A stretch of DNA of 62,828 nucleotides from an uncultured Clostridia bacterium (GTDB lineage Bacteria > Bacillota > Clostridia > TANB77 > CAG-508). Shown here one piece after another: positions 1 to 53,204 of this stretch. The DNA lies in the NCBI GenBank assembly GCA_947631495.1, contig CANRLO010000002.1:1-62828 (forward strand). The letters run 5' to 3'. How positions within the stretch are numbered: position 1 is the stretch's first letter; every line of letters starts with the position of its first letter. A model generated the notes under the pieces. The model searched no databases, was not told where the DNA came from, and saw only the letters and a list, made by a program, of their open reading frames with translations. A program made the position numbers and the translations under genes.

Positions 1-759
1 TTAGGAATGGCAGGATTAAATTTCCCTGAAAATGCAGACTATAAAGAAGAAAAAGAAAACAAAAATAATATAGCACCATTTGAATTTATTCCTTATGTAT
101 TAGCACAATGTGCAAATATTAGTGAAGTTAAAAAATTATTAGAAAGTATCAATATAGCATTAATCAACTTTAGCGAAGAATTACCAGCATCACCATTACA
201 TTGGATAATTGCAGATAAAGAATCTTCAATAATAGTGGAAAGTGTTAAAGAAGGACTTAAAATATATGAAAATCCAGTAGGTGTACTTACAAACAACCCA
301 ACATTTGACATTCAAATGTTTAACTTAAACAATTATATGAATTTATCAACTAAGCCACCTGTAAACAACTTTTCAAAAGAATTAAATTTAAAAACTTACA
401 GTAGAGGCATGGGTGCTATGGGATTACCAGGAGATTTATCTTCTGTATCTAGATTTGTAAAAGCAACCTTTACAAAAATGAATTCCATCTCTGGTGATTC
501 AGAATCAGAAAGTATTAGCCAATTCTTTCATATATTAGACAGTGTATGCCAACAAAGAGGTTGTGTATATATGGGAGAAAACCTATATGAAATAACCATT
601 TATAGCTCTTGCTGTAATATGGAAAAAGGAATTTACTATTATAAAACGTATGAAAATAGCCAAATTACTGCTATTAACATGAACAAAGAAAATTTAGATG
701 GAAATACTTTAGTAAGTTATGACTTAATAAAAGGGCAACAAATTTTAGAGCAAAATTAA
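1..759 (+). CDS. choloylglycine (bile-salt) hydrolase / linear amide C-N hydrolase family protein, C-terminal part; 5' end outside window
   Basis: Frame 1 is open from base 1 through the listed ATG at 7. Blocks PLHWIIADKESSIIVE, GVLTNNPTFD and SRFVKATF are recognised from Ntn-hydrolase bile-salt hydrolases. Confidence 0.7.
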   Translation, partial: LGMAGLNFPENADYKEEKENKNNIAPFEFIPYVLAQCANISEVKKLLESINIALINFSEELPASPLHWIIADKESSIIVESVKEGLKIYENPVGVLTNNPTFDIQMFNLNNYMNLSTKPPVNNFSKELNLKTYSRGMGAMGLPGDLSSVSRFVKATFTKMNSISGDSESESISQFFHILDSVCQQRGCVYMGENLYEITIYSSCCNMEKGIYYYKTYENSQITAINMNKENLDGNTLVSYDLIKGQQILEQN

Positions 760-768
760 GAAAAATTA

Positions 769-797
769 TTGACATAAAGCATAAGAAATAGTATAAT
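769..797 (+). promoter_or_regulatory. sigma-A type promoter upstream of the 36-nt repeat array
   Basis: TTGACA (769-774), 17-bp spacer, TATAAT (792-797); perfect consensus hexamers. Confidence 0.6.
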
Positions 798-895
798 GAA
801 TATACTAATATAGAATAGCTATTTAGTAATTCAAGTGTTTCTTAACTAAAAATAGTGAATTTAGTGAACACTTATGCTAGAACTAGCAAAAAGTT

Positions 896-1003
896 GGTGA
901 ATCCAGCCATTAAATTGGAACTTAAAAAAGCGGTGAATCCAGCCATTAAATTGGAATTAAAAAAAGCGGTGTTTCCAGCCATTAAATTGGAACTTAAAAA
1001 AGG
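896..1003 (+). ncRNA. toxI: ToxI-like type III antitoxin RNA: three tandem 36-nt repeats
   Basis: GGTGAATCCAGCCATTAAATTGGAACTTAAAAAAGC starts at 896, 932 and 968 (period exactly 36; 2-3 mismatches between copies). It lies between a consensus promoter and a terminator, directly upstream of a ToxN/AbiQ-like reading frame. Confidence 0.75.
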
Positions 1004-1033
1004 GGATTAGGGGCAAAACTCTAATCCTTTTGT
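1003..1033 (+). terminator. rho-independent terminator between repeat RNA and toxN remnant
   Basis: GGATTAG (1004-1010) pairs with CTAATCC (1021-1027), followed by TTTTGTATTG. This is the same position as the attenuating terminator of ToxIN loci. Confidence 0.7.
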
Positions 1034-1084
1034 ATTGTATTTCTATAGTTACTAATGTATAATTAAAATGCTGAGGAGGTAATT

Positions 1085-1371
1085 GTGATGATTATAAACT
1101 TAAAAATTGTTAGAGTTAATTCTGATTATTGTGATTATTTAAGAAAATATGATAATAAGGTGGCTTATAATAAAAACGAAAAAGAATTAAGACCTTTTAT
1201 AGGTTATTAAGAGAACAATTAGCTTGGCTAAATGCAAATTATCATCAAGTAAAAAATAAATCTTTTAAGTTATATCAATTATATAATAAAGGGAGATTAC
1301 CAGAAAACTTAAAATCGAGATGCTGTAATTTCAAATTACTAGAGGAAAAATGTATAGAATATAATAAATAG
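1085..1371 (+). pseudogene. toxN: ToxN/AbiQ-family type III toxin gene with internal deletion and frameshift
   Basis: GAGGAGG RBS then GTGATG. The 40-codon frame 1088-1210 (MIINLKIVRVNSDYCDYLRKYDNKVAYNKNEKELRPFIGY) resembles a ToxN/AbiQ N-terminus. A second frame 1213-1371 (...NKGRLPENLKSRCCNFKLLEEKCIEYNK) resembles the family C-terminus (CNF..LEEK). The central part of a ~170-aa toxin is missing. Confidence 0.65.
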
Positions 1372-1415
1372 CATCGTGGCATAAAATGAATTCATTTATA
1401 AATAGGAGACAAACT

Positions 1416-2963: not shown

Positions 2964-3158
2964 GGTTACCTTTGGGGACGTTTCCTAAAGGGAAATTGAT
3001 AAGAAAAACGAAGCAAATTAAAGAGAATACATAATAAATTTAAATTTTTGTTAAAATTAAAGCAAAATCATTAGAAATAAACTTTTTTAGATTTTTATAA
3101 TTTCAAAAGTTACCAAAAGGGACAGATTTACCAAAAGTAAACGTCCCCAAAGGTAACC
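2964..3158. repeat. MITE/REP-like element A with 20-bp perfect terminal inverted repeats (GGGACG core)
   Basis: GGTTACCTTTGGGGACGTTT (2964-2983) and its exact reverse complement AAACGTCCCCAAAGGTAACC (3139-3158). The internal block GCAAATTAAAGAGAATACATAATAAA is shared with element B. Confidence 0.65.
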
Positions 3159-3204
3159 AAAATGTAAGTCCAAAAGTTACTAAAGGATGGGAAGGAAAGA
3201 AAAA

Positions 3205-4155
3205 ATGATTGCAATTCATCCTATATTAAAATGCTTTCCTCTAAAAGTGGCAAAGAAAATAGAAGATTATTTCCTTTCGGAAAATATCAATTTGAATTTA
3301 CTAGAGGAAATTCGCATTCGTACAAATCGTCCTATTTTACTTAAAGTAGGACAAGAAGAAAGAAAAGTAGAACATGTAATTTCGCAAGAAGAAATTCTAG
3401 AGACTCTGCAACATATTTGCGATAATTCCATATATAGCTATCAAAGCCAAATTTGCAAAGGTTATATCACTATGCAAGGTGGACATCGTGTTGGAATTAC
3501 TGGAAATGCAATAATTAAAGAAGGACAGGTTAGTAATATTAACTATATTTCTAGCCTTAATTTTCGTATTGCAAAACAGGTTCTAGGGGCTAGCAACAAA
3601 ATTTTAAAATATGTTATTAACGAAGAAGAAAATTCAGTTTTTAATACACTTATTGTTTCACCACCAGGAGCAGGAAAGACTACTATTTTAAGAGATTTGA
3701 TTCGTAAATTAAGCAATGGAATTGAACAAATCAATTTTCATGGAATAAATATAGGAGTAATTGACGAAAGAGGAGAAATTGCAGCTATGTATCGTGGCGT
3801 TCCACAAAATGATGTAGGCATTCGAACTGATGTATTAGACAATGTAAGTAAAGAAATAGGAATGAGCATGCTGGTACGTTCTATGGCGCCAAAAGTCATT
3901 GTAGCAGATGAAATAGGAAATCCAGAAGAAATAAAGCCTATCATGTATGCTATTTGTTCAGGAGTTAAAGGAATTTTTACAGCGCACGGAGCTTCTATTG
4001 AAGATATAAAATTAAATCCTACACTAAATGAACTTGCAGAAAATGGTGTATTTGAAAGAATTATTTTTTTAAACGATAAAAAAGAAAAAGGAGAAATTCA
4101 AAAAGTATATTGCTTGAATAAAATAGAAAAGCAATATGTTCTGTATAATAATTAA
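3205..4155 (+). CDS. spoIIIAA: stage III sporulation protein AA (ATPase)
   Basis: Walker A SPPGAGKTT, first gene of a spoIIIA-ordered operon. The ATG at 3205 has better RBS spacing than the track start 3187. Confidence 0.85.
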   Translation: MIAIHPILKCFPLKVAKKIEDYFLSENINLNLLEEIRIRTNRPILLKVGQEERKVEHVISQEEILETLQHICDNSIYSYQSQICKGYITMQGGHRVGITGNAIIKEGQVSNINYISSLNFRIAKQVLGASNKILKYVINEEENSVFNTLIVSPPGAGKTTILRDLIRKLSNGIEQINFHGINIGVIDERGEIAAMYRGVPQNDVGIRTDVLDNVSKEIGMSMLVRSMAPKVIVADEIGNPEEIKPIMYAICSGVKGIFTAHGASIEDIKLNPTLNELAENGVFERIIFLNDKKEKGEIQKVYCLNKIEKQYVLYNN

Positions 4156-4230: not shown

Positions 4231-4740
4231 ATGCAAATAATCAAATGTGTAATTTTAGTACTTCTTTTTGCTTCTAGTAGTTACATAGGGGTGCTCATAG
4301 CAAAAAAATATCAAGCAAGAGTAAGAGAATTAAAAGAAATAAAAACCTCTCTTGCTATTTTTGCTACAAAAATAAAACTAACATATGAGCCAATTCCACA
4401 AATATTTGAAGAATTAGGGAATAGAGAACAAAATAATATATCTAATTTATTTCAGATAGCATCTAAAAACATGAAAGAACTGCCAGCAGGACAGGCTTGG
4501 CTAGAAGCCTTAGATAAAACAAATACAAATTTGAAAAAAGAAGATATAGAAGTATTAAAAGGATTAAGCAGTTTACTTGGAAAAGTAGATTTAGAAGGGC
4601 AAGTAAGCGAAATAGAATTAGTAGACCACTTTTTAGACAGACAAATAGAAATAGCACAAGAAGAAAGCAAAAAAAGTGAAAAAATGTATAAAACACTAGG
4701 TGTTACAGTAGGACTAGCAATGGTCATTGTCTTAATATAA
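4231..4740 (+). CDS. spoIIIAB: stage III sporulation protein AB
   Basis: ~170 aa with N- and C-terminal TM helices; position between spoIIIAA and spoIIIAC. Confidence 0.75.
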   Translation: MQIIKCVILVLLFASSSYIGVLIAKKYQARVRELKEIKTSLAIFATKIKLTYEPIPQIFEELGNREQNNISNLFQIASKNMKELPAGQAWLEALDKTNTNLKKEDIEVLKGLSSLLGKVDLEGQVSEIELVDHFLDRQIEIAQEESKKSEKMYKTLGVTVGLAMVIVLI

Positions 4741-4776
4741 ACAAAGAATAACTCACAAAAGAAAGGAAATAGAACA

Positions 4777-4971
4777 ATGGATATCAATTTATTATTTAAA
4801 ATAGCGGCAATAGGAATATTAGTAGCAGTTTTGCATCAAGTACTAGTACGTGCAGGTAGAGAAGACCAAGCTATGATGACAACTTTAGCCGGACTAGTTA
4901 TTGTGCTAAGTATGGTCATTAAAGAAATAAGTGCCTTATTTGACACAGTACGAACCATTTTTGGACTTTGA
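4777..4971 (+). CDS. spoIIIAC: stage III sporulation protein AC
   Basis: 64-aa two-TM protein MDINLLFKIAAIGILVAVL...VRAGREDQA..., typical SpoIIIAC. Confidence 0.85.
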   Translation: MDINLLFKIAAIGILVAVLHQVLVRAGREDQAMMTTLAGLVIVLSMVIKEISALFDTVRTIFGL

Positions 4972-5095
4972 TACATTAGGGACACTGATACATTAGGGAC
5001 GTTTCCTTTTGTATCATTTGTCCATTTTGATACATTAATAACAAATATAAAGCGAATTAAAGAAAATATATAATAAACGGAAAACGTCCCAAAAG
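4970..5095. repeat. MITE/REP-like element B (GGGACG core) between spoIIIAC and spoIIIAD
   Basis: GATACATTAGGGAC occurs twice (4970-, 4987-). GGGACGTTTCCTTTTG (4996-5011) faces GGAAAACGTCCC (5079-5090). It shares the internal block GCGAATTAAAGAAAATATATAATAAA with element A and starts inside the spoIIIAC stop codon. Confidence 0.6.
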
Positions 5096-8196: not shown

Positions 8197-8343
8197 GGGA
8201 CGTTTCCTTTTGGTAAATCTGTCCCTTTTGGTAACTCTTTTAGAGATAAATTACTCAAAAGGAATAGATACTCCAAAGGAGGACACATACTCAAAAGGGA
8301 CAGATACTCGATTAGGAACAGACTTCCCAAAAGGAAACGTCCC
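8197..8343. repeat. MITE/REP-like element C with 17-bp perfect terminal inverted repeats
   Basis: GGGACGTTTCCTTTTGG (8197-8213) and CCAAAAGGAAACGTCCC (8327-8343); lies between spoIIIAG and spoIIIAH. Confidence 0.65.
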
Positions 8344-8375
8344 TAATGCATCAAAAGGGAAAAAAGGAGGAAAAA

Positions 8376-9008
8376 ATGCAAATTTTAAAAAGAAATCAAA
8401 TTATTATTTTAGTAGTTGCACTAATGCTAGTTTCAGCAGGTTACTTAAATTTTGTAACAAGACAAAACGAAAATACGATTGCTACTAGTGTACAAGATGA
8501 AAATATTCAAGTTGCAGGAATAGGAGATGCAAAATTAGTAAGCAGTAATGGAATAGTTGAACAAAACGAAATAATATCTGATGATTTAAATAATCAAAAT
8601 AACGTAATAGAAAATGAAATTGATGCGACTATTAGTACAAATAGCGATATAGCTCAAGACGATAGTAACTATTTTTCTTCATCTCGTTTGAACCGCGAAA
8701 CCATGTATTCACAAATGATAGAAAGTTATCAAAAGATATTAGAAAATGAATCTATTAGTGAAACACAAAAAGCTATTGCACAAACAGAAATACAAAATAT
8801 CAATAAAACGAAAAATAAAATTATGATATGTGAAAATTTAATAAAAACAAAGCAAATAGAAGATTTAGTAATTTTTGTAAATGATAAAAGTATTAGTGTT
8901 GTAGTAAAGGCAAATAAGCTAGAACAAGAGCAAATTGCGCAAATTCAAAATATTATTGCAAGAGAAATGGAAACAGATATTACTAATATTCATATTAGCA
9001 ATAAATAA
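8376..9008 (+). CDS. spoIIIAH: stage III sporulation protein AH
   Basis: AGGAGG RBS before ATG 8376, N-terminal TM anchor MQILKRNQIIILVVALMLVSAGYLNF, last gene of the operon. Confidence 0.7.
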   Translation: MQILKRNQIIILVVALMLVSAGYLNFVTRQNENTIATSVQDENIQVAGIGDAKLVSSNGIVEQNEIISDDLNNQNNVIENEIDATISTNSDIAQDDSNYFSSSRLNRETMYSQMIESYQKILENESISETQKAIAQTEIQNINKTKNKIMICENLIKTKQIEDLVIFVNDKSISVVVKANKLEQEQIAQIQNIIAREMETDITNIHISNK

Positions 9009-28614: not shown

Positions 28615-29751
28615 ATGAAAAATAAAATTTTTTTCGCAGGAGATTTTTTAATATCACATGGAATTAATAATTATAAAATAATAGATGAAAAGTTACAAAA
28701 AAAGATAGATGAATGTGATATAGTATGTTGTAATTTTGAAGGACCTATCGTAGTAGATACACAAGCAAAAAAGAAAAAAATAGGACCAAATATAAATAAT
28801 AATAAAGAAAATGCAGAAAAACTAATTAAAAGTAATTTTAATTTGTTTTGTTTAGCTAATAATCATATATTTGATTATGGGATAGAAGGCATAACAAATA
28901 CAATAAATTTTTTTAAAGAAAGAAATGTAAAATATATAGGAGCAAATATAGATACAGAAGAAATATATCAAGAATTTATAAAAAAAATTAATGGTATAAA
29001 AGTAGGAATCATAAATGTTGCAGAAAATGGTTTTGGAGCTGCTATAGAAAATGAAGAATATGGTTATGCTTATATGTTCAATAAAAGAGCAATAAATAAA
29101 ATTAAAGAAGTTAGACAACAAGTAGATAAATTAATACTTGTTGTACATGCAGGTGCAGAACACTGGGATATACCACTTCAAGAAATTAGAGATTCCTATA
29201 AAATGTTTATAGATATGGGAGTAGATATAATCATAGGACATCACCCACATGTGCCACAAGGAATTGAACAATACAAAAACGGTTTAATTGTATATAGTTT
29301 AGGAAATTTTGCATTTGATAGAGGACAAGGACCATTGAATAATCATACATATTCCATTATAATAACTTTATTAAATGATAACACTTTTGAATATGAATTA
29401 GTACCTATTACATTTGACAATAATGTTATAAGTATTGATACTTCATCTCAAAATGTTTTAGAAGGCAAATTTGAAAAATTATGTGCTATTTTAGAAAATA
29501 ATGAGCAATATAAAGAAGAAATGAATAGAAATTGTATAACATATTATGAATACTATAAAGGAACCTATAGCAGGATATTTTGTATCTATAAAGGAAGTAT
29601 AAAAGAAAGAATGAAAGGTTTTATAAAAAAATATATACTAAGACAAAAATTTCAAGATATCTGGTTATATCATAATATTAACATAGAAACACATTTATGG
29701 ATATGCAAAAGAGCAACAAGACTAATATTAAAGCAAAAAAATATATTGTAA
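28615..29751 (+). CDS. CapA-family (PGA_cap, metallophosphatase-like) protein
   Basis: FAGDFL...CNFEGPI...ANNHIFDYG...HAGAEH...GHHPHV motif series. Confidence 0.72.
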   Translation: MKNKIFFAGDFLISHGINNYKIIDEKLQKKIDECDIVCCNFEGPIVVDTQAKKKKIGPNINNNKENAEKLIKSNFNLFCLANNHIFDYGIEGITNTINFFKERNVKYIGANIDTEEIYQEFIKKINGIKVGIINVAENGFGAAIENEEYGYAYMFNKRAINKIKEVRQQVDKLILVVHAGAEHWDIPLQEIRDSYKMFIDMGVDIIIGHHPHVPQGIEQYKNGLIVYSLGNFAFDRGQGPLNNHTYSIIITLLNDNTFEYELVPITFDNNVISIDTSSQNVLEGKFEKLCAILENNEQYKEEMNRNCITYYEYYKGTYSRIFCIYKGSIKERMKGFIKKYILRQKFQDIWLYHNINIETHLWICKRATRLILKQKNIL

Positions 29752-29777
29752 TAAAAAGAATAAAAGGAGAAATAATA

Positions 29778-30941
<1,164 letters not shown>

Positions 30942-52885: not shown

Positions 52886-52914
52886 TTGAAAATAAGAATA
52901 TAATATAGTATAAT
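52886..52914 (+). promoter_or_regulatory. consensus sigma-A promoter of the 34-nt repeat RNA
   Basis: TTGAAA (52886-52891), 17 bp, TATAAT (52909-52914). Confidence 0.55.
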
Positions 52915-52956
52915 CAATATACTAAGAAGGATGTTATAAAAAACATCAAAATGAGA

Positions 52957-53058
52957 GAGGTCCTGCTATAGTGGACGATTTAAAATTGGAGAGGTCTTGC
53001 CTTAGTAGACGATTAAAAATGAGAGAGGTCCTGCTTTAGTGGACAATTTAAAATAGGG
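52957..53058 (+). ncRNA. small RNA candidate made of three tandem 34-nt repeats
   Basis: The GAGGTC anchor occurs at 52957, 52991 and 53025 (period exactly 34). Unit is approximately GAGGTCCTGCTATAGTGGACGATTTAAAATTGGA. Flanked by a consensus promoter and a 12-bp-stem terminator. Confidence 0.55.
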
Positions 53059-53096
53059 GCTATTATACGGTTAACGTATAGTAGCCTTTATTTGTT
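53058..53096 (+). terminator. rho-independent terminator of the repeat RNA
   Basis: GGCTATTATACG pairs with CGTATAGTAGCC (one G-T pair), then TTTATTTGTTTG. Confidence 0.8.
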
Positions 53097-53204
53097 TGTA
53101 ATTTTCTACTATTAGAACAAAAATGTAAAGAATATCACACAAAAGGTTGCACAAAAAAATAAGGTTTGTTATAATGCAGGTAGAAATAAAATAGGAGAAA
53201 ACAA

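Follow-up and report, generated by a model that had tools for sequence, protein, structure and literature searches.

The stretch analyzed here (the window) comprises 62,828 nucleotides (nt) of contig CANRLO010000002.1 from an uncultured Clostridia bacterium (assembly GCA_947631495.1). Near its left end lies a locus of the ToxIN family, that is, of type III toxin-antitoxin and abortive-infection systems, in which the antitoxin gene toxI is whole and the toxin gene toxN is broken. In an intact ToxIN system, the toxI repeats are transcribed from one promoter and a leaky terminator passes a minority of the transcripts into toxN. ToxN is a sequence-specific endoribonuclease that itself cleaves the repeat RNA to single units of ~36 nt; as pseudoknots, these attach to the toxin and obstruct its active site. 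The features of the window locus, all on the plus strand, are listed below in their order.

769-797, plus strand: sigma-70 promoter, TTGACA-17-TATAAT, identical to the consensus at 12/12 positions
798-887, plus strand: presumed transcribed leader of ~85-90 nt, with hairpins in the predicted fold
888-1002, plus strand: toxI, three antitoxin units (888-923, 924-958 and 959-995) and a partial fourth
1000-1040, plus strand: intrinsic terminator separating toxI from toxN, GGATTAG...CTAATCC and then TTTTGTATTGT
1056-1079, plus strand: TGTATAAT (1056-1063) and the ribosome-binding site (RBS) GAGGAGG (1073-1079) upstream of toxN, read from the sequence
1088-1210, plus strand: 5' remnant of toxN, ATG at 1088, codons 1-39 followed by an out-of-frame Tyr and a stop (TAA, 1208-1210)
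1203/1204, plus strand: deletion junction ATAGG/TTATTAAG, placed by alignments to the intact loci L006 and L001
1204-1371, plus strand: 3' remnant of toxN, codons 113-167 and stop (1369-1371), in another frame and untranslated

Both ends of the toxin are recognizable by profile. The N-terminal peptide matches positions 1-35 of the 159 in Pfam PF13958 (ToxN_toxin; E = 4.9e-9, 37 bits with a cut-off of 25), and the C-terminal peptide (LLREQL...CCNFKLLEEKCIEYNK; the DNA from 1204 encodes LLREQLAWLNANYHQVKNKSFKLYQLYNKGRLPENLKSRCCNFKLLEEKCIEYNK) matches positions 108-159 (E = 3.2e-8, 34.3 bits, same cut-off). When fused, the remnants reach 63.5 bits (E = 3.3e-17). The AbiQ model of PADLOC splits them as Pfam does, and NCBIfam gave no match for either fragment. 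The N-terminal remnant is 90-95% identical to the intact proteins P0001, P0004, P0005, P0012, and P0045 and 78-83% identical to the intact P0002, P0003, P0015, and P0054. The joined peptide has 780 relatives in a large protein collection, the great majority of them 166-168 amino acids (aa) long and carrying PF13958; aligned to this set, the window peptides are the two ends of the protein and ~73 middle residues are missing. A first-pass annotation of the window, made from the letters alone, had proposed a ToxIN/AbiQ-like type III locus with an intact antitoxin array and a toxin that had lost its catalytic middle. This view is borne out, as both fragments match the ToxN profile in the search that it had called for and intact homologues share the layout. 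It had also placed ~40 N-terminal codons at 1088-1210, which holds, and a C-terminal fragment in another frame up to 1371. The latter exists, but homology begins at 1204 and not at 1213.

The lesion could be mapped to the base against two intact loci. L006 comes from a rabbit-gut metagenome-assembled genome (MAG; GCA_947626735.1, "uncultured Clostridia bacterium") of a sister species that served as the syntenic reference, and L001 is a metagenome contig with a different genomic context and the same three repeats, a terminator, and a 167-aa toxN. The alignment to intact homologues that the first-pass annotation had suggested revealed one 220-nt block absent from the window relative to both L006 and L001, corresponding to residues 40-112 plus one base. 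Since 220 cannot be divided evenly by three, the remnants lie in different frames (1088 mod 3 = 2, 1204 mod 3 = 1), as a loss of this size predicts. No microhomology was visible at the junction. The deletion is not an assembly error, because the identical junction is found in L002 (99.9% identical over 4.2 kb, from another sample), in L003 (a third assembly), and in an independent Logan unitig of 154 nt, assembled from rabbit gut metagenome run X1, which covers 1088-1241 with 0 differences.

The active site of Pectobacterium ToxN, ToxN(Pa), consists of Tyr29, Lys33, Thr52, Ser53, and Lys55 (PMC5086642). In a HMMER alignment of the L006 protein to this toxin, Thr52-Ser53-Pro-Lys55 corresponds to Ser54-Ser55-Pro-Lys57. 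The deleted block takes in this loop together with most of the beta-core; of the active-site equivalents only that of Lys33 (Arg35) is left, and Ser54, Ser55, and Lys57 are gone. As the catalytic loop lies inside the deleted block, the toxin is dead, and from its sequence the locus is a pseudogenized member of the ToxIN family and not a working system.

The antitoxin part of the locus tells a different story. Tandem Repeats Finder (TRF) gives the stretch 888-1002 a score of 186, as a 36-nt unit, AAAAAGCGGTGAATCCAGCCATTAAATTGGAACTTA, repeated 3.2 times; the units begin at 888, 924, and 959. Three 36-nt repeats had been recognized at first pass, with a start at 896, where the GGTG of unit 1 lies; that start is now moved upstream. 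An array of ~3 units also lies upstream of toxN in ~77 related loci from gut Clostridia and Bacilli MAGs. Among 80 loci collected from species-representative genomes via the toxN protein, almost all have 2-4 copies, usually 3.2, of a unit of 34-37 nt; they share a unit consensus, and the array lies 60-120 nt upstream of the toxN start. An open reading frame (ORF) that spans the repeats (855-1010) was considered as a gene and rejected: in relatives the units vary from 34 to 37 nt, out of step with a triplet code.

Each toxI unit is predicted to fold as an H-type pseudoknot with two interleaved stems, where positions 9-11 pair with 19-21 (stem 1) and 15-18 with 29-32 (stem 2), leaving predicted loops of 3, 0-1, and 7 nt. 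Pairs were counted with an explicit alignment rule that is blind to complementarity; a MAFFT alignment of 120 units left-justified those with shorter linkers and was not used for the counts. Stem 1 has standard pairs in all of the 113 unique units. It mostly reads G-C, G-C, U.G, with A-U, G-C, C-G, or U-A as alternates, and G9-C21 is replaced by A-U in 4 units. Stem 2 is mostly UCCA/UGGA and occurs in the compensatory forms CCCA/UGGG, GGCA/UGCC, and UCCG/C-GGA; its outer pair (U15-A32) is U-A in 87 of the 113 units, C-G in 21 (11 loci), and non-Watson-Crick in 5. Covariation in both helices thus supports a predicted pseudoknot of the ToxI type. The tract of five to seven A residues that separates the units of this array would be a natural processing site by analogy, as ToxN of Bacillus thuringiensis, ToxN(Bt), reportedly cleaves within a run of A.

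The Rfam ToxI model RF02519 (gathering score 50 bits) did not match positions 600-1500 even at E = 10, and an Rfam search of the whole window gave nothing at gathering score. RF02519 is a narrow 34-nt model, and missing it is no argument against a ToxI-like function. Blower et al. (2012) defined members of the family by a ToxN homologue, upstream repeats of 31-62 nt in 1.9-5.6 copies, a terminator, and a promoter, and gave as family statistics 38 nt for the mean repeat, 2.8 for the copies, and 168 aa for the toxin (PMC3401426). The intact form of the window locus fits these values. The window itself has the homology to ToxN, the array, the terminator, the promoter, and the predicted pseudoknot, and lacks a complete toxin ORF.

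The promoter and terminator beside the array are intact too. The consensus promoter at 769-797, already recognized at first pass, is 100% identical in L006. Its -10 region lies inside a palindromic box, TAGTATAATgAATATACTAA (789-808), and it stands ~90 nt from the array; relatives of this array mostly use another promoter, TTGCATATAAT, at ~30 nt. The join of promoter and array is common to the window, L002, and the sister species L006. Directly 5' of repeat 1, the leader carries a hairpin, GCTAGAACTAGC (876-887), which is kept in family members (GCTAGAAATAGC in relatives). The terminator hairpin with its T-tail (1000-1031; given as 1003-1033 at first pass, where the element was right and its bounds were shifted) is the sole plus-strand match in 600-2200, with 0.4 expected from shuffled sequence. 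In the structure predicted for the putative transcript this hairpin prevails, and an equivalent one is kept in L001, L006, and other relatives. The RBS and start codon of a ToxN/AbiQ-like ORF follow as originally called. A TATAAT at the place of 1056-1063 is also found in L001, L006, L111, L181, and L201, which suggests that toxN may own a weak promoter in addition to terminator read-through.

Comparison with L006 bears on the age of the deletion. The upstream choloylglycine-hydrolase (CBAH) gene differs at 7.0% of its positions (42 synonymous and 11 non-synonymous differences), the leader at 6.7% with a 6-nt indel, and the spacer after the terminator at 9.8%. The repeat array has 0/115 differences and the terminator 0/31. 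The 5' remnant of toxN differs by 2.5%, with only two changes inside the coding part, both synonymous, and the 3' remnant by 4.2% (7 differences, 5 of them synonymous). Thus 7/9 of the substitutions in the remnants (2 + 7) are synonymous, and at both non-synonymous sites the window has the residue of the family consensus, which puts these changes on the L006 side. As the remnants are free of any further stop, indel, or amino-acid change, the deletion is very recent in relation to the 7% split. It follows that the intact antitoxin says nothing on selection after the toxin was lost. Read this way, the unchanged array and terminator would be a trace of selection during the life of the toxin and no evidence for later selection.

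The cassette as a whole is an accessory insert between two genes.

7-759: choloylglycine-hydrolase (CBAH) gene, upstream neighbour
760-1401, plus strand: whole toxIN cassette, from the CBAH stop codon to the RBS of a gene for a 221-aa membrane protein
1416-2081: gene for the 221-aa membrane protein, downstream neighbour, ATG at 1416

It is polymorphic within the species. Contigs of related rabbit-gut strains in run X5 fuse 756/758 to 1399/1402 and have no cassette, so that 643 bp are absent exactly between the stop codon and the RBS of the next gene. In runs X6, X7, and X8 this intergenic site is filled by a different short insert, which contains a hairpin (ACAGGGACGGAGCA...TGCTACGTCCCT). In L006 the cassette is at the equivalent place with an intact toxN of 167 aa, which occupies 3001-3504 of that locus; the CBAH proteins are 96% identical, and the DNA is 93% identical over window positions 1 to 1414. 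Only the deleted allele (window, L002, L003, and X1) or no cassette at all was seen in the window's own species; the intact allele turned up only in its sister species, namely in L006 and in the runs X10 and X12. In L003 (1-567) the array and the deleted toxN are fused, exactly at the first repeat, to different upstream DNA with an FtsW/RodA-like ORF and a family-typical toxI promoter. This was considered as a genuine second genomic context and set aside: the breakpoint falls exactly at repeat 1 and the contig has a coverage of 2.3x, so the contig is probably chimeric.

Among known systems, the closest solved toxin to the intact orthologue is that of B. thuringiensis ToxIN (pAW63; 4ATO), from a Firmicutes host, which it matches at E = 2.1e-26 over residues 6-166. 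ToxN(Pa) follows (2XD0, 2e-21), then E. coli ToxN (7D8O) and finally AbiQ. The B. thuringiensis system resembles the window in its ~34-36-nt repeats in about three copies, followed by a terminator and toxN; however, the toxin match is at profile level with low protein identity, the 36-nt repeat of the window has another sequence, and its toxin is deleted. In Pectobacterium atrosepticum, ToxIN (pECA1039; 2XD0/2XDB/2XDD) has the same order of promoter, tandem 36-nt repeats, terminator, and toxN. Its pseudoknot with two nested stems of 3-4 bp, Group I of Blower et al., is similar to that predicted here, and the Group I loops (3 nt between 1a and 2a, very short between 2a and 1b, and up to 7 nt between 1b and 2b) are matched by the window (PMC3401426). 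Moreover, the (T/S)-S-P-K active-site loop is conserved in the intact orthologue. By contrast, the Pectobacterium system is plasmid-borne in a Gram-negative host, has 5.5 repeats and not 3.2, and its toxin is a more distant match than that of Bacillus. Between distant ToxI/ToxN pairs no cross-talk is expected (PMC5086642). AbiQ/antiQ of Lactococcus lactis (4GLK) is likewise an abortive-infection system, and its array has 2.8 copies of ~35 nt. It shares a Pfam/PADLOC superfamily with the window toxin, and PADLOC calls both window fragments AbiQ; of the solved relatives it is the most remote (E = 1.2e-10).

Shortened toxins next to complete arrays have been seen before. Blower et al. (2012) noted loci with full repeats and terminators yet partial toxins, such as cptIN of Bryantella formatexigens (toxins of 45 and 66 aa), which is like the window in this respect (PMC3401426). 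Their examples were mostly cptIN and were left uninterpreted, whereas in the window an intact orthologue in synteny allowed the lesion to be placed to the base, and the frequency of such alleles is estimated here within one ToxIN clade, at about one third. A toxin encoded at another site can be neutralised by antitoxins that have no cognate toxin beside them, such as the PhiTE phage's pseudo-ToxI and the orphan antitoxins of type II (PMC3475682, PMC7192599). Such antitoxins are the model behind the idea of a decoy. The PhiTE element is phage-borne, has 1.5 repeats, and is protective only once expanded; by this analogy a neutralising role of the window array is hypothetical.

The ToxIN clade is very widespread among MAGs of gut Clostridia and Bacilli: the species-representative genomes scanned gave at least 390 matches to toxN. 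The frequency of toxin loss was estimated from a metagenome scan anchored on the ToxI unit alone, in which at least one perfect unit was required. This yielded 42 genuine loci: 23 have an intact toxN (167-178 aa), 3 are cut by a contig end, and in 16 (13 distinct alleles) toxN is disrupted or missing. In this sample, 13/36 distinct alleles have no intact toxN. The 13 alleles (L099, L100, L111, L129, L134, L142, L145, L164, L175, L176, L181, L197, and L201) retain promoter and terminator, and their units are structurally perfect. An internal frameshifting deletion resembling that of the window is seen in L134 and L165, and another one in L145. toxN is truncated in L129, L142, and L197 and frameshifted in L164 and L175; L100 and L136 have residues 1-43 only, L111 and L167 only the last 26 codons, and L181 a 24-codon scrap. 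In L099, L176, and L201 no toxN is present. The truncated alleles break at various places (residues 1-43, 1-60, 1-96, 1-109, 1-138, or 142-167 only, or none left). Three disrupted alleles recur at ~99.2% identity in different samples, and among the protein-level matches five different in-frame internal deletions were found (P0021, P0075, P0027, P0086, and P0032). All seven base pairs of the pseudoknot are kept in 28/28 recognizable units of the disrupted loci and in 60/61 of the intact loci, and the mean number of units per array is 2.15 without and 2.65 with the toxin. By sequence, then, loss of the toxin with retention of the array is frequent in this clade. The census is no proof of selection, given that a perfect unit was a condition of entry into the sample and that partial toxins had been noted before.

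Certain genomes have a pair of adjacent type III loci. In L023 a decayed copy with 2 units, a terminator, and a 24-codon toxN scrap (480-830, identical to L181) lies 2 kb upstream of an intact paralogue at 3001-3501. In L011 an intact toxIN (3001-3501) is followed by a distant ToxN paralogue (4478-4987, 37% identical) with its own array of 37 nt x 2.8 copies.

The window itself contains a second ToxI-like array.

52886-52914: promoter, 11/12 consensus positions, followed by a 5' hairpin
52948-53054: array of 3.1 copies of a 34-nt unit, AAAATGAGAGAGGTCCTGCTTTAGTGGACGATTT (TRF run on the whole window)
53051-53093: strong terminator
53097-53135: toxN tail remnant of 11-13 codons (CNFLLLEQKC..., CNFLLLEQKCKEY)

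No toxin gene follows this terminator; the next features are the promoter and ORF of an MFS transporter. The segment 53097-53135 is identical at 31/39 nt to the 3' end of toxN at the first locus. It seems to be what is left of a deleted toxin, its final codons, though so short a peptide is beyond the reach of Pfam. Compared with units 1 and 3, unit 2 has compensatory changes in two pairs (C-G to U-A and A-U to G-C) of a ToxI-like pseudoknot. One unit gave a weak match to RF02519 (24.1 bits, E = 0.033), below the gathering score. Because the site is empty in the sister species, where the dprA stop is directly followed by the MFS promoter, the second module can be described as an insertion of ~262 nt, flanked by TAAAGAA. 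Runs X5, X6, and X8 have the module with the same junction between terminator and remnant, while their flanking genes differ by 2.5-9%; as the toxin-less state is common to such diverged strains, the loss of the toxin is older at this array. Across strains the module shows 2 differences in 163 nt compared with ~10 in 250 nt of flank, numbers that are small and come from Logan unitigs in which repeat copies are collapsed. Another species, L056, has a second-type module without a toxin upstream of feoAB; beyond the terminator its homology to the window is weak (23/37 positions) and was not used as evidence. A BLAST search with the second array gave no match among plasmids. Both arrays have in common a 20-nt box, TAGTATAATnAATATACTAA, with arms TAGTATA and TATACTA, over their -10 regions (789-808 and 52906-52925). 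It has no further exact copy in the window, and allowing up to 3 mismatches brings the count to 5 matches, where shuffled sequence gives 0.7. This box could be a shared operator or the result of a promoter swap.

Further evidence on the second unit type came from viral contigs. In one viral element (L213, L256, L262, and L282; in L213 at 8213-8870, minus strand) two second-type units and a terminator are followed by a 178-aa ToxN (Pfam E = 1.2e-32). Because it is paired with ToxN there, the second-array unit is, by sequence, a genuine antitoxin type. A scan of IMG/VR viral contigs with this unit type (L208-L308) found 74 contigs with a unit-like match, 70 of which have a single unit and no ToxN (e.g., L208, L214, L216, L231, and L237). 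tRNA genes lie within 1.5 kb of the unit in 43 of these 70. The commonest phage unit, GGAGAGGTCTTGCCTTAGTAGACGATTAA, is identical to unit 2 of the second array (52985-53013), and the variable stem pair of the phage units is U-A in 48, C-G in 29, U.G in 1, and C.A in 0. The solitary phage units resemble the PhiTE element and may be phage-borne pseudo-ToxI decoys, a widespread form of RNA counter-defence. The same scan with the unit of the first array gave 4 single matches at chance level, with no arrays and no toxN.

Elsewhere in the window, a perfect (AC)27 tract at 29801-29855 falls within the 5' portion of the coding sequence for an acyltransferase-like membrane protein of 414 aa (ORF 29697-30941), which comes after a CapA-like gene. 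The tract encodes (Thr-His)n and has the appearance of a phase-variation switch of the dinucleotide type that acts on a surface-modifying enzyme.

Taken together, these data are best explained by a chromosomal member of the ToxIN family in early decay of the ordinary, toxin-first kind, a reading to which we assign a probability of roughly three in four. A toxin-antitoxin pair can decay only with the toxin first, since prior loss of the antitoxin is lethal. What one expects to see first in such decay is thus an intact antitoxin beside a broken toxin. Here the single 220-bp deletion removed ToxN residues 40-112 and shifted the frame, and a 40-residue N-terminal peptide is all that can still be made. 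According to this model, the array would still be transcribed into a precursor of ~235 nt (~804 to ~1040) ending at the terminator, and this precursor would stay unprocessed because processing needs ToxN. A minority of read-through transcripts would allow translation of the 40-residue peptide. No target would be encoded at the locus, and both abortive-infection defence and addiction would be gone, while the 115-nt array would be intact because the deletion is too young for visible neutral decay. Several observations nevertheless pull the other way. The 0/146 nt differences in array and terminator, against 7-10% in flanking non-coding DNA, show purifying selection somewhere on the two lineages, part of it possibly after the deletion. 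The frequent toxin-less arrays, with all seven pairs in 28/28 units, would also fit retention under selection, as would the older toxin-less array in the same window. Furthermore, transcription of the array is deduced solely from its perfect, conserved promoter: metatranscriptome contigs of relatives cover such arrays, but one includes the -10 box, so that carry-over of DNA is possible, and RNA runs of other gut communities gave conserved words only, in contigs that may include DNA.

The strongest competitor to toxin-first decay, though in our view an unlikely one, is that the toxI array is kept by selection as an antidote, its RNA neutralising a homologous ToxN from elsewhere. Such a toxin could come from a paralogous toxIN in the same genome, where the array would provide an extra dose, or from incoming plasmids, prophages, and phages, where it would act in anti-addiction or as a decoy. 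The ToxI unit is almost invariant over dozens of species whose ToxN are just 60-90% identical, so one array could plausibly cover many incoming toxins. Processing would not be needed, as the ToxI precursor neutralises ToxN(Pa) without it (PMC5086642), and orphan antitoxins of type II have been suggested to serve in anti-addiction (PMC7192599). The proportion of toxin-less alleles (13/36, with promoter, terminator, and perfect units kept), the recurrence of several of them in different samples, and the decayed copy 2 kb from an intact paralogue in L023 all point in this direction; however, a census ascertained on at least one perfect unit makes decayed arrays invisible, and the lower number of units in toxin-less arrays is what erosion predicts. 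The second array, with its toxin reduced to ~11-13 codons in diverged strains and its unit type present in a toxIN on a viral contig, is a further argument for retention, but the strain comparison has no statistical power, and the viral contigs yielded no arrays of the first type. The loss of the whole cassette without replacement in related strains also speaks against a maintained antidote. At the first locus the deletion is too recent to reveal any constraint that followed it, and for this reason the locus alone cannot separate decay from decoy. The first-pass annotation had offered both: decay is the more economical, and the decoy is kept open, unproven, by the family-wide data.

Two other explanations carry far less weight. 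A new function of the 40-residue peptide or of the remnant RNA, for instance as a ToxI-binding or regulatory peptide or as a dominant-negative partner of ToxN, is very improbable. The RBS and start codon are intact, the peptide is unchanged from the family consensus, and Blower et al. left the activity of partial toxins open (PMC3401426); yet the peptide has neither the beta-core nor three of the five active-site residues, other truncated alleles break at many places with no preferred product, and recency explains the conservation of the sequence. Least credible of all is an artefact, either a mis-assembly at the repeats that created the deletion or the locus, or repeats that in fact code for a repetitive peptide (ORF 855-1010). 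The chimeric look of L003 at low coverage and the collapse of repeat copies in Logan unitigs are what such an explanation could draw on. Against it, the junction lies 200 nt from the repeats and was seen in three assemblies from different samples in addition to the independent unitig, the join of promoter and array is shared with L002 and the sister species, and units of 34-37 nt with compensatory changes fit an RNA and not a reading frame.

The locus is a cleanly documented death of a type III module, in which the catalytic core was lost by one frameshifting deletion and the RNA antitoxin gene was left whole. For annotation, it means that the 40-aa ORF gets called as a weak match to ToxN. On its own the locus is unsurprising, and its wider value lies in the frequent toxin-less arrays of the clade, the second array of the window, and the matching solitary units in dozens of large gut-phage contigs. 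A bolder and unlikely proposal, which we hold to be slightly less probable than an antidote role at the first locus, is that toxin-less ToxI arrays in gut Clostridia are maintained, and perhaps spread as cassettes of promoter, array, and terminator, as RNA antidotes against delivered ToxN, mirroring the phage units beside tRNA genes. If this were true, the window would contain two antidote genes of different specificity (769-1040 and 52886-53093), and the palindromic box common to their promoters would hint at joint regulation. If orphan arrays are functional, they would form a simple, RNA-only layer in the economy of defence and counter-defence in the gut.

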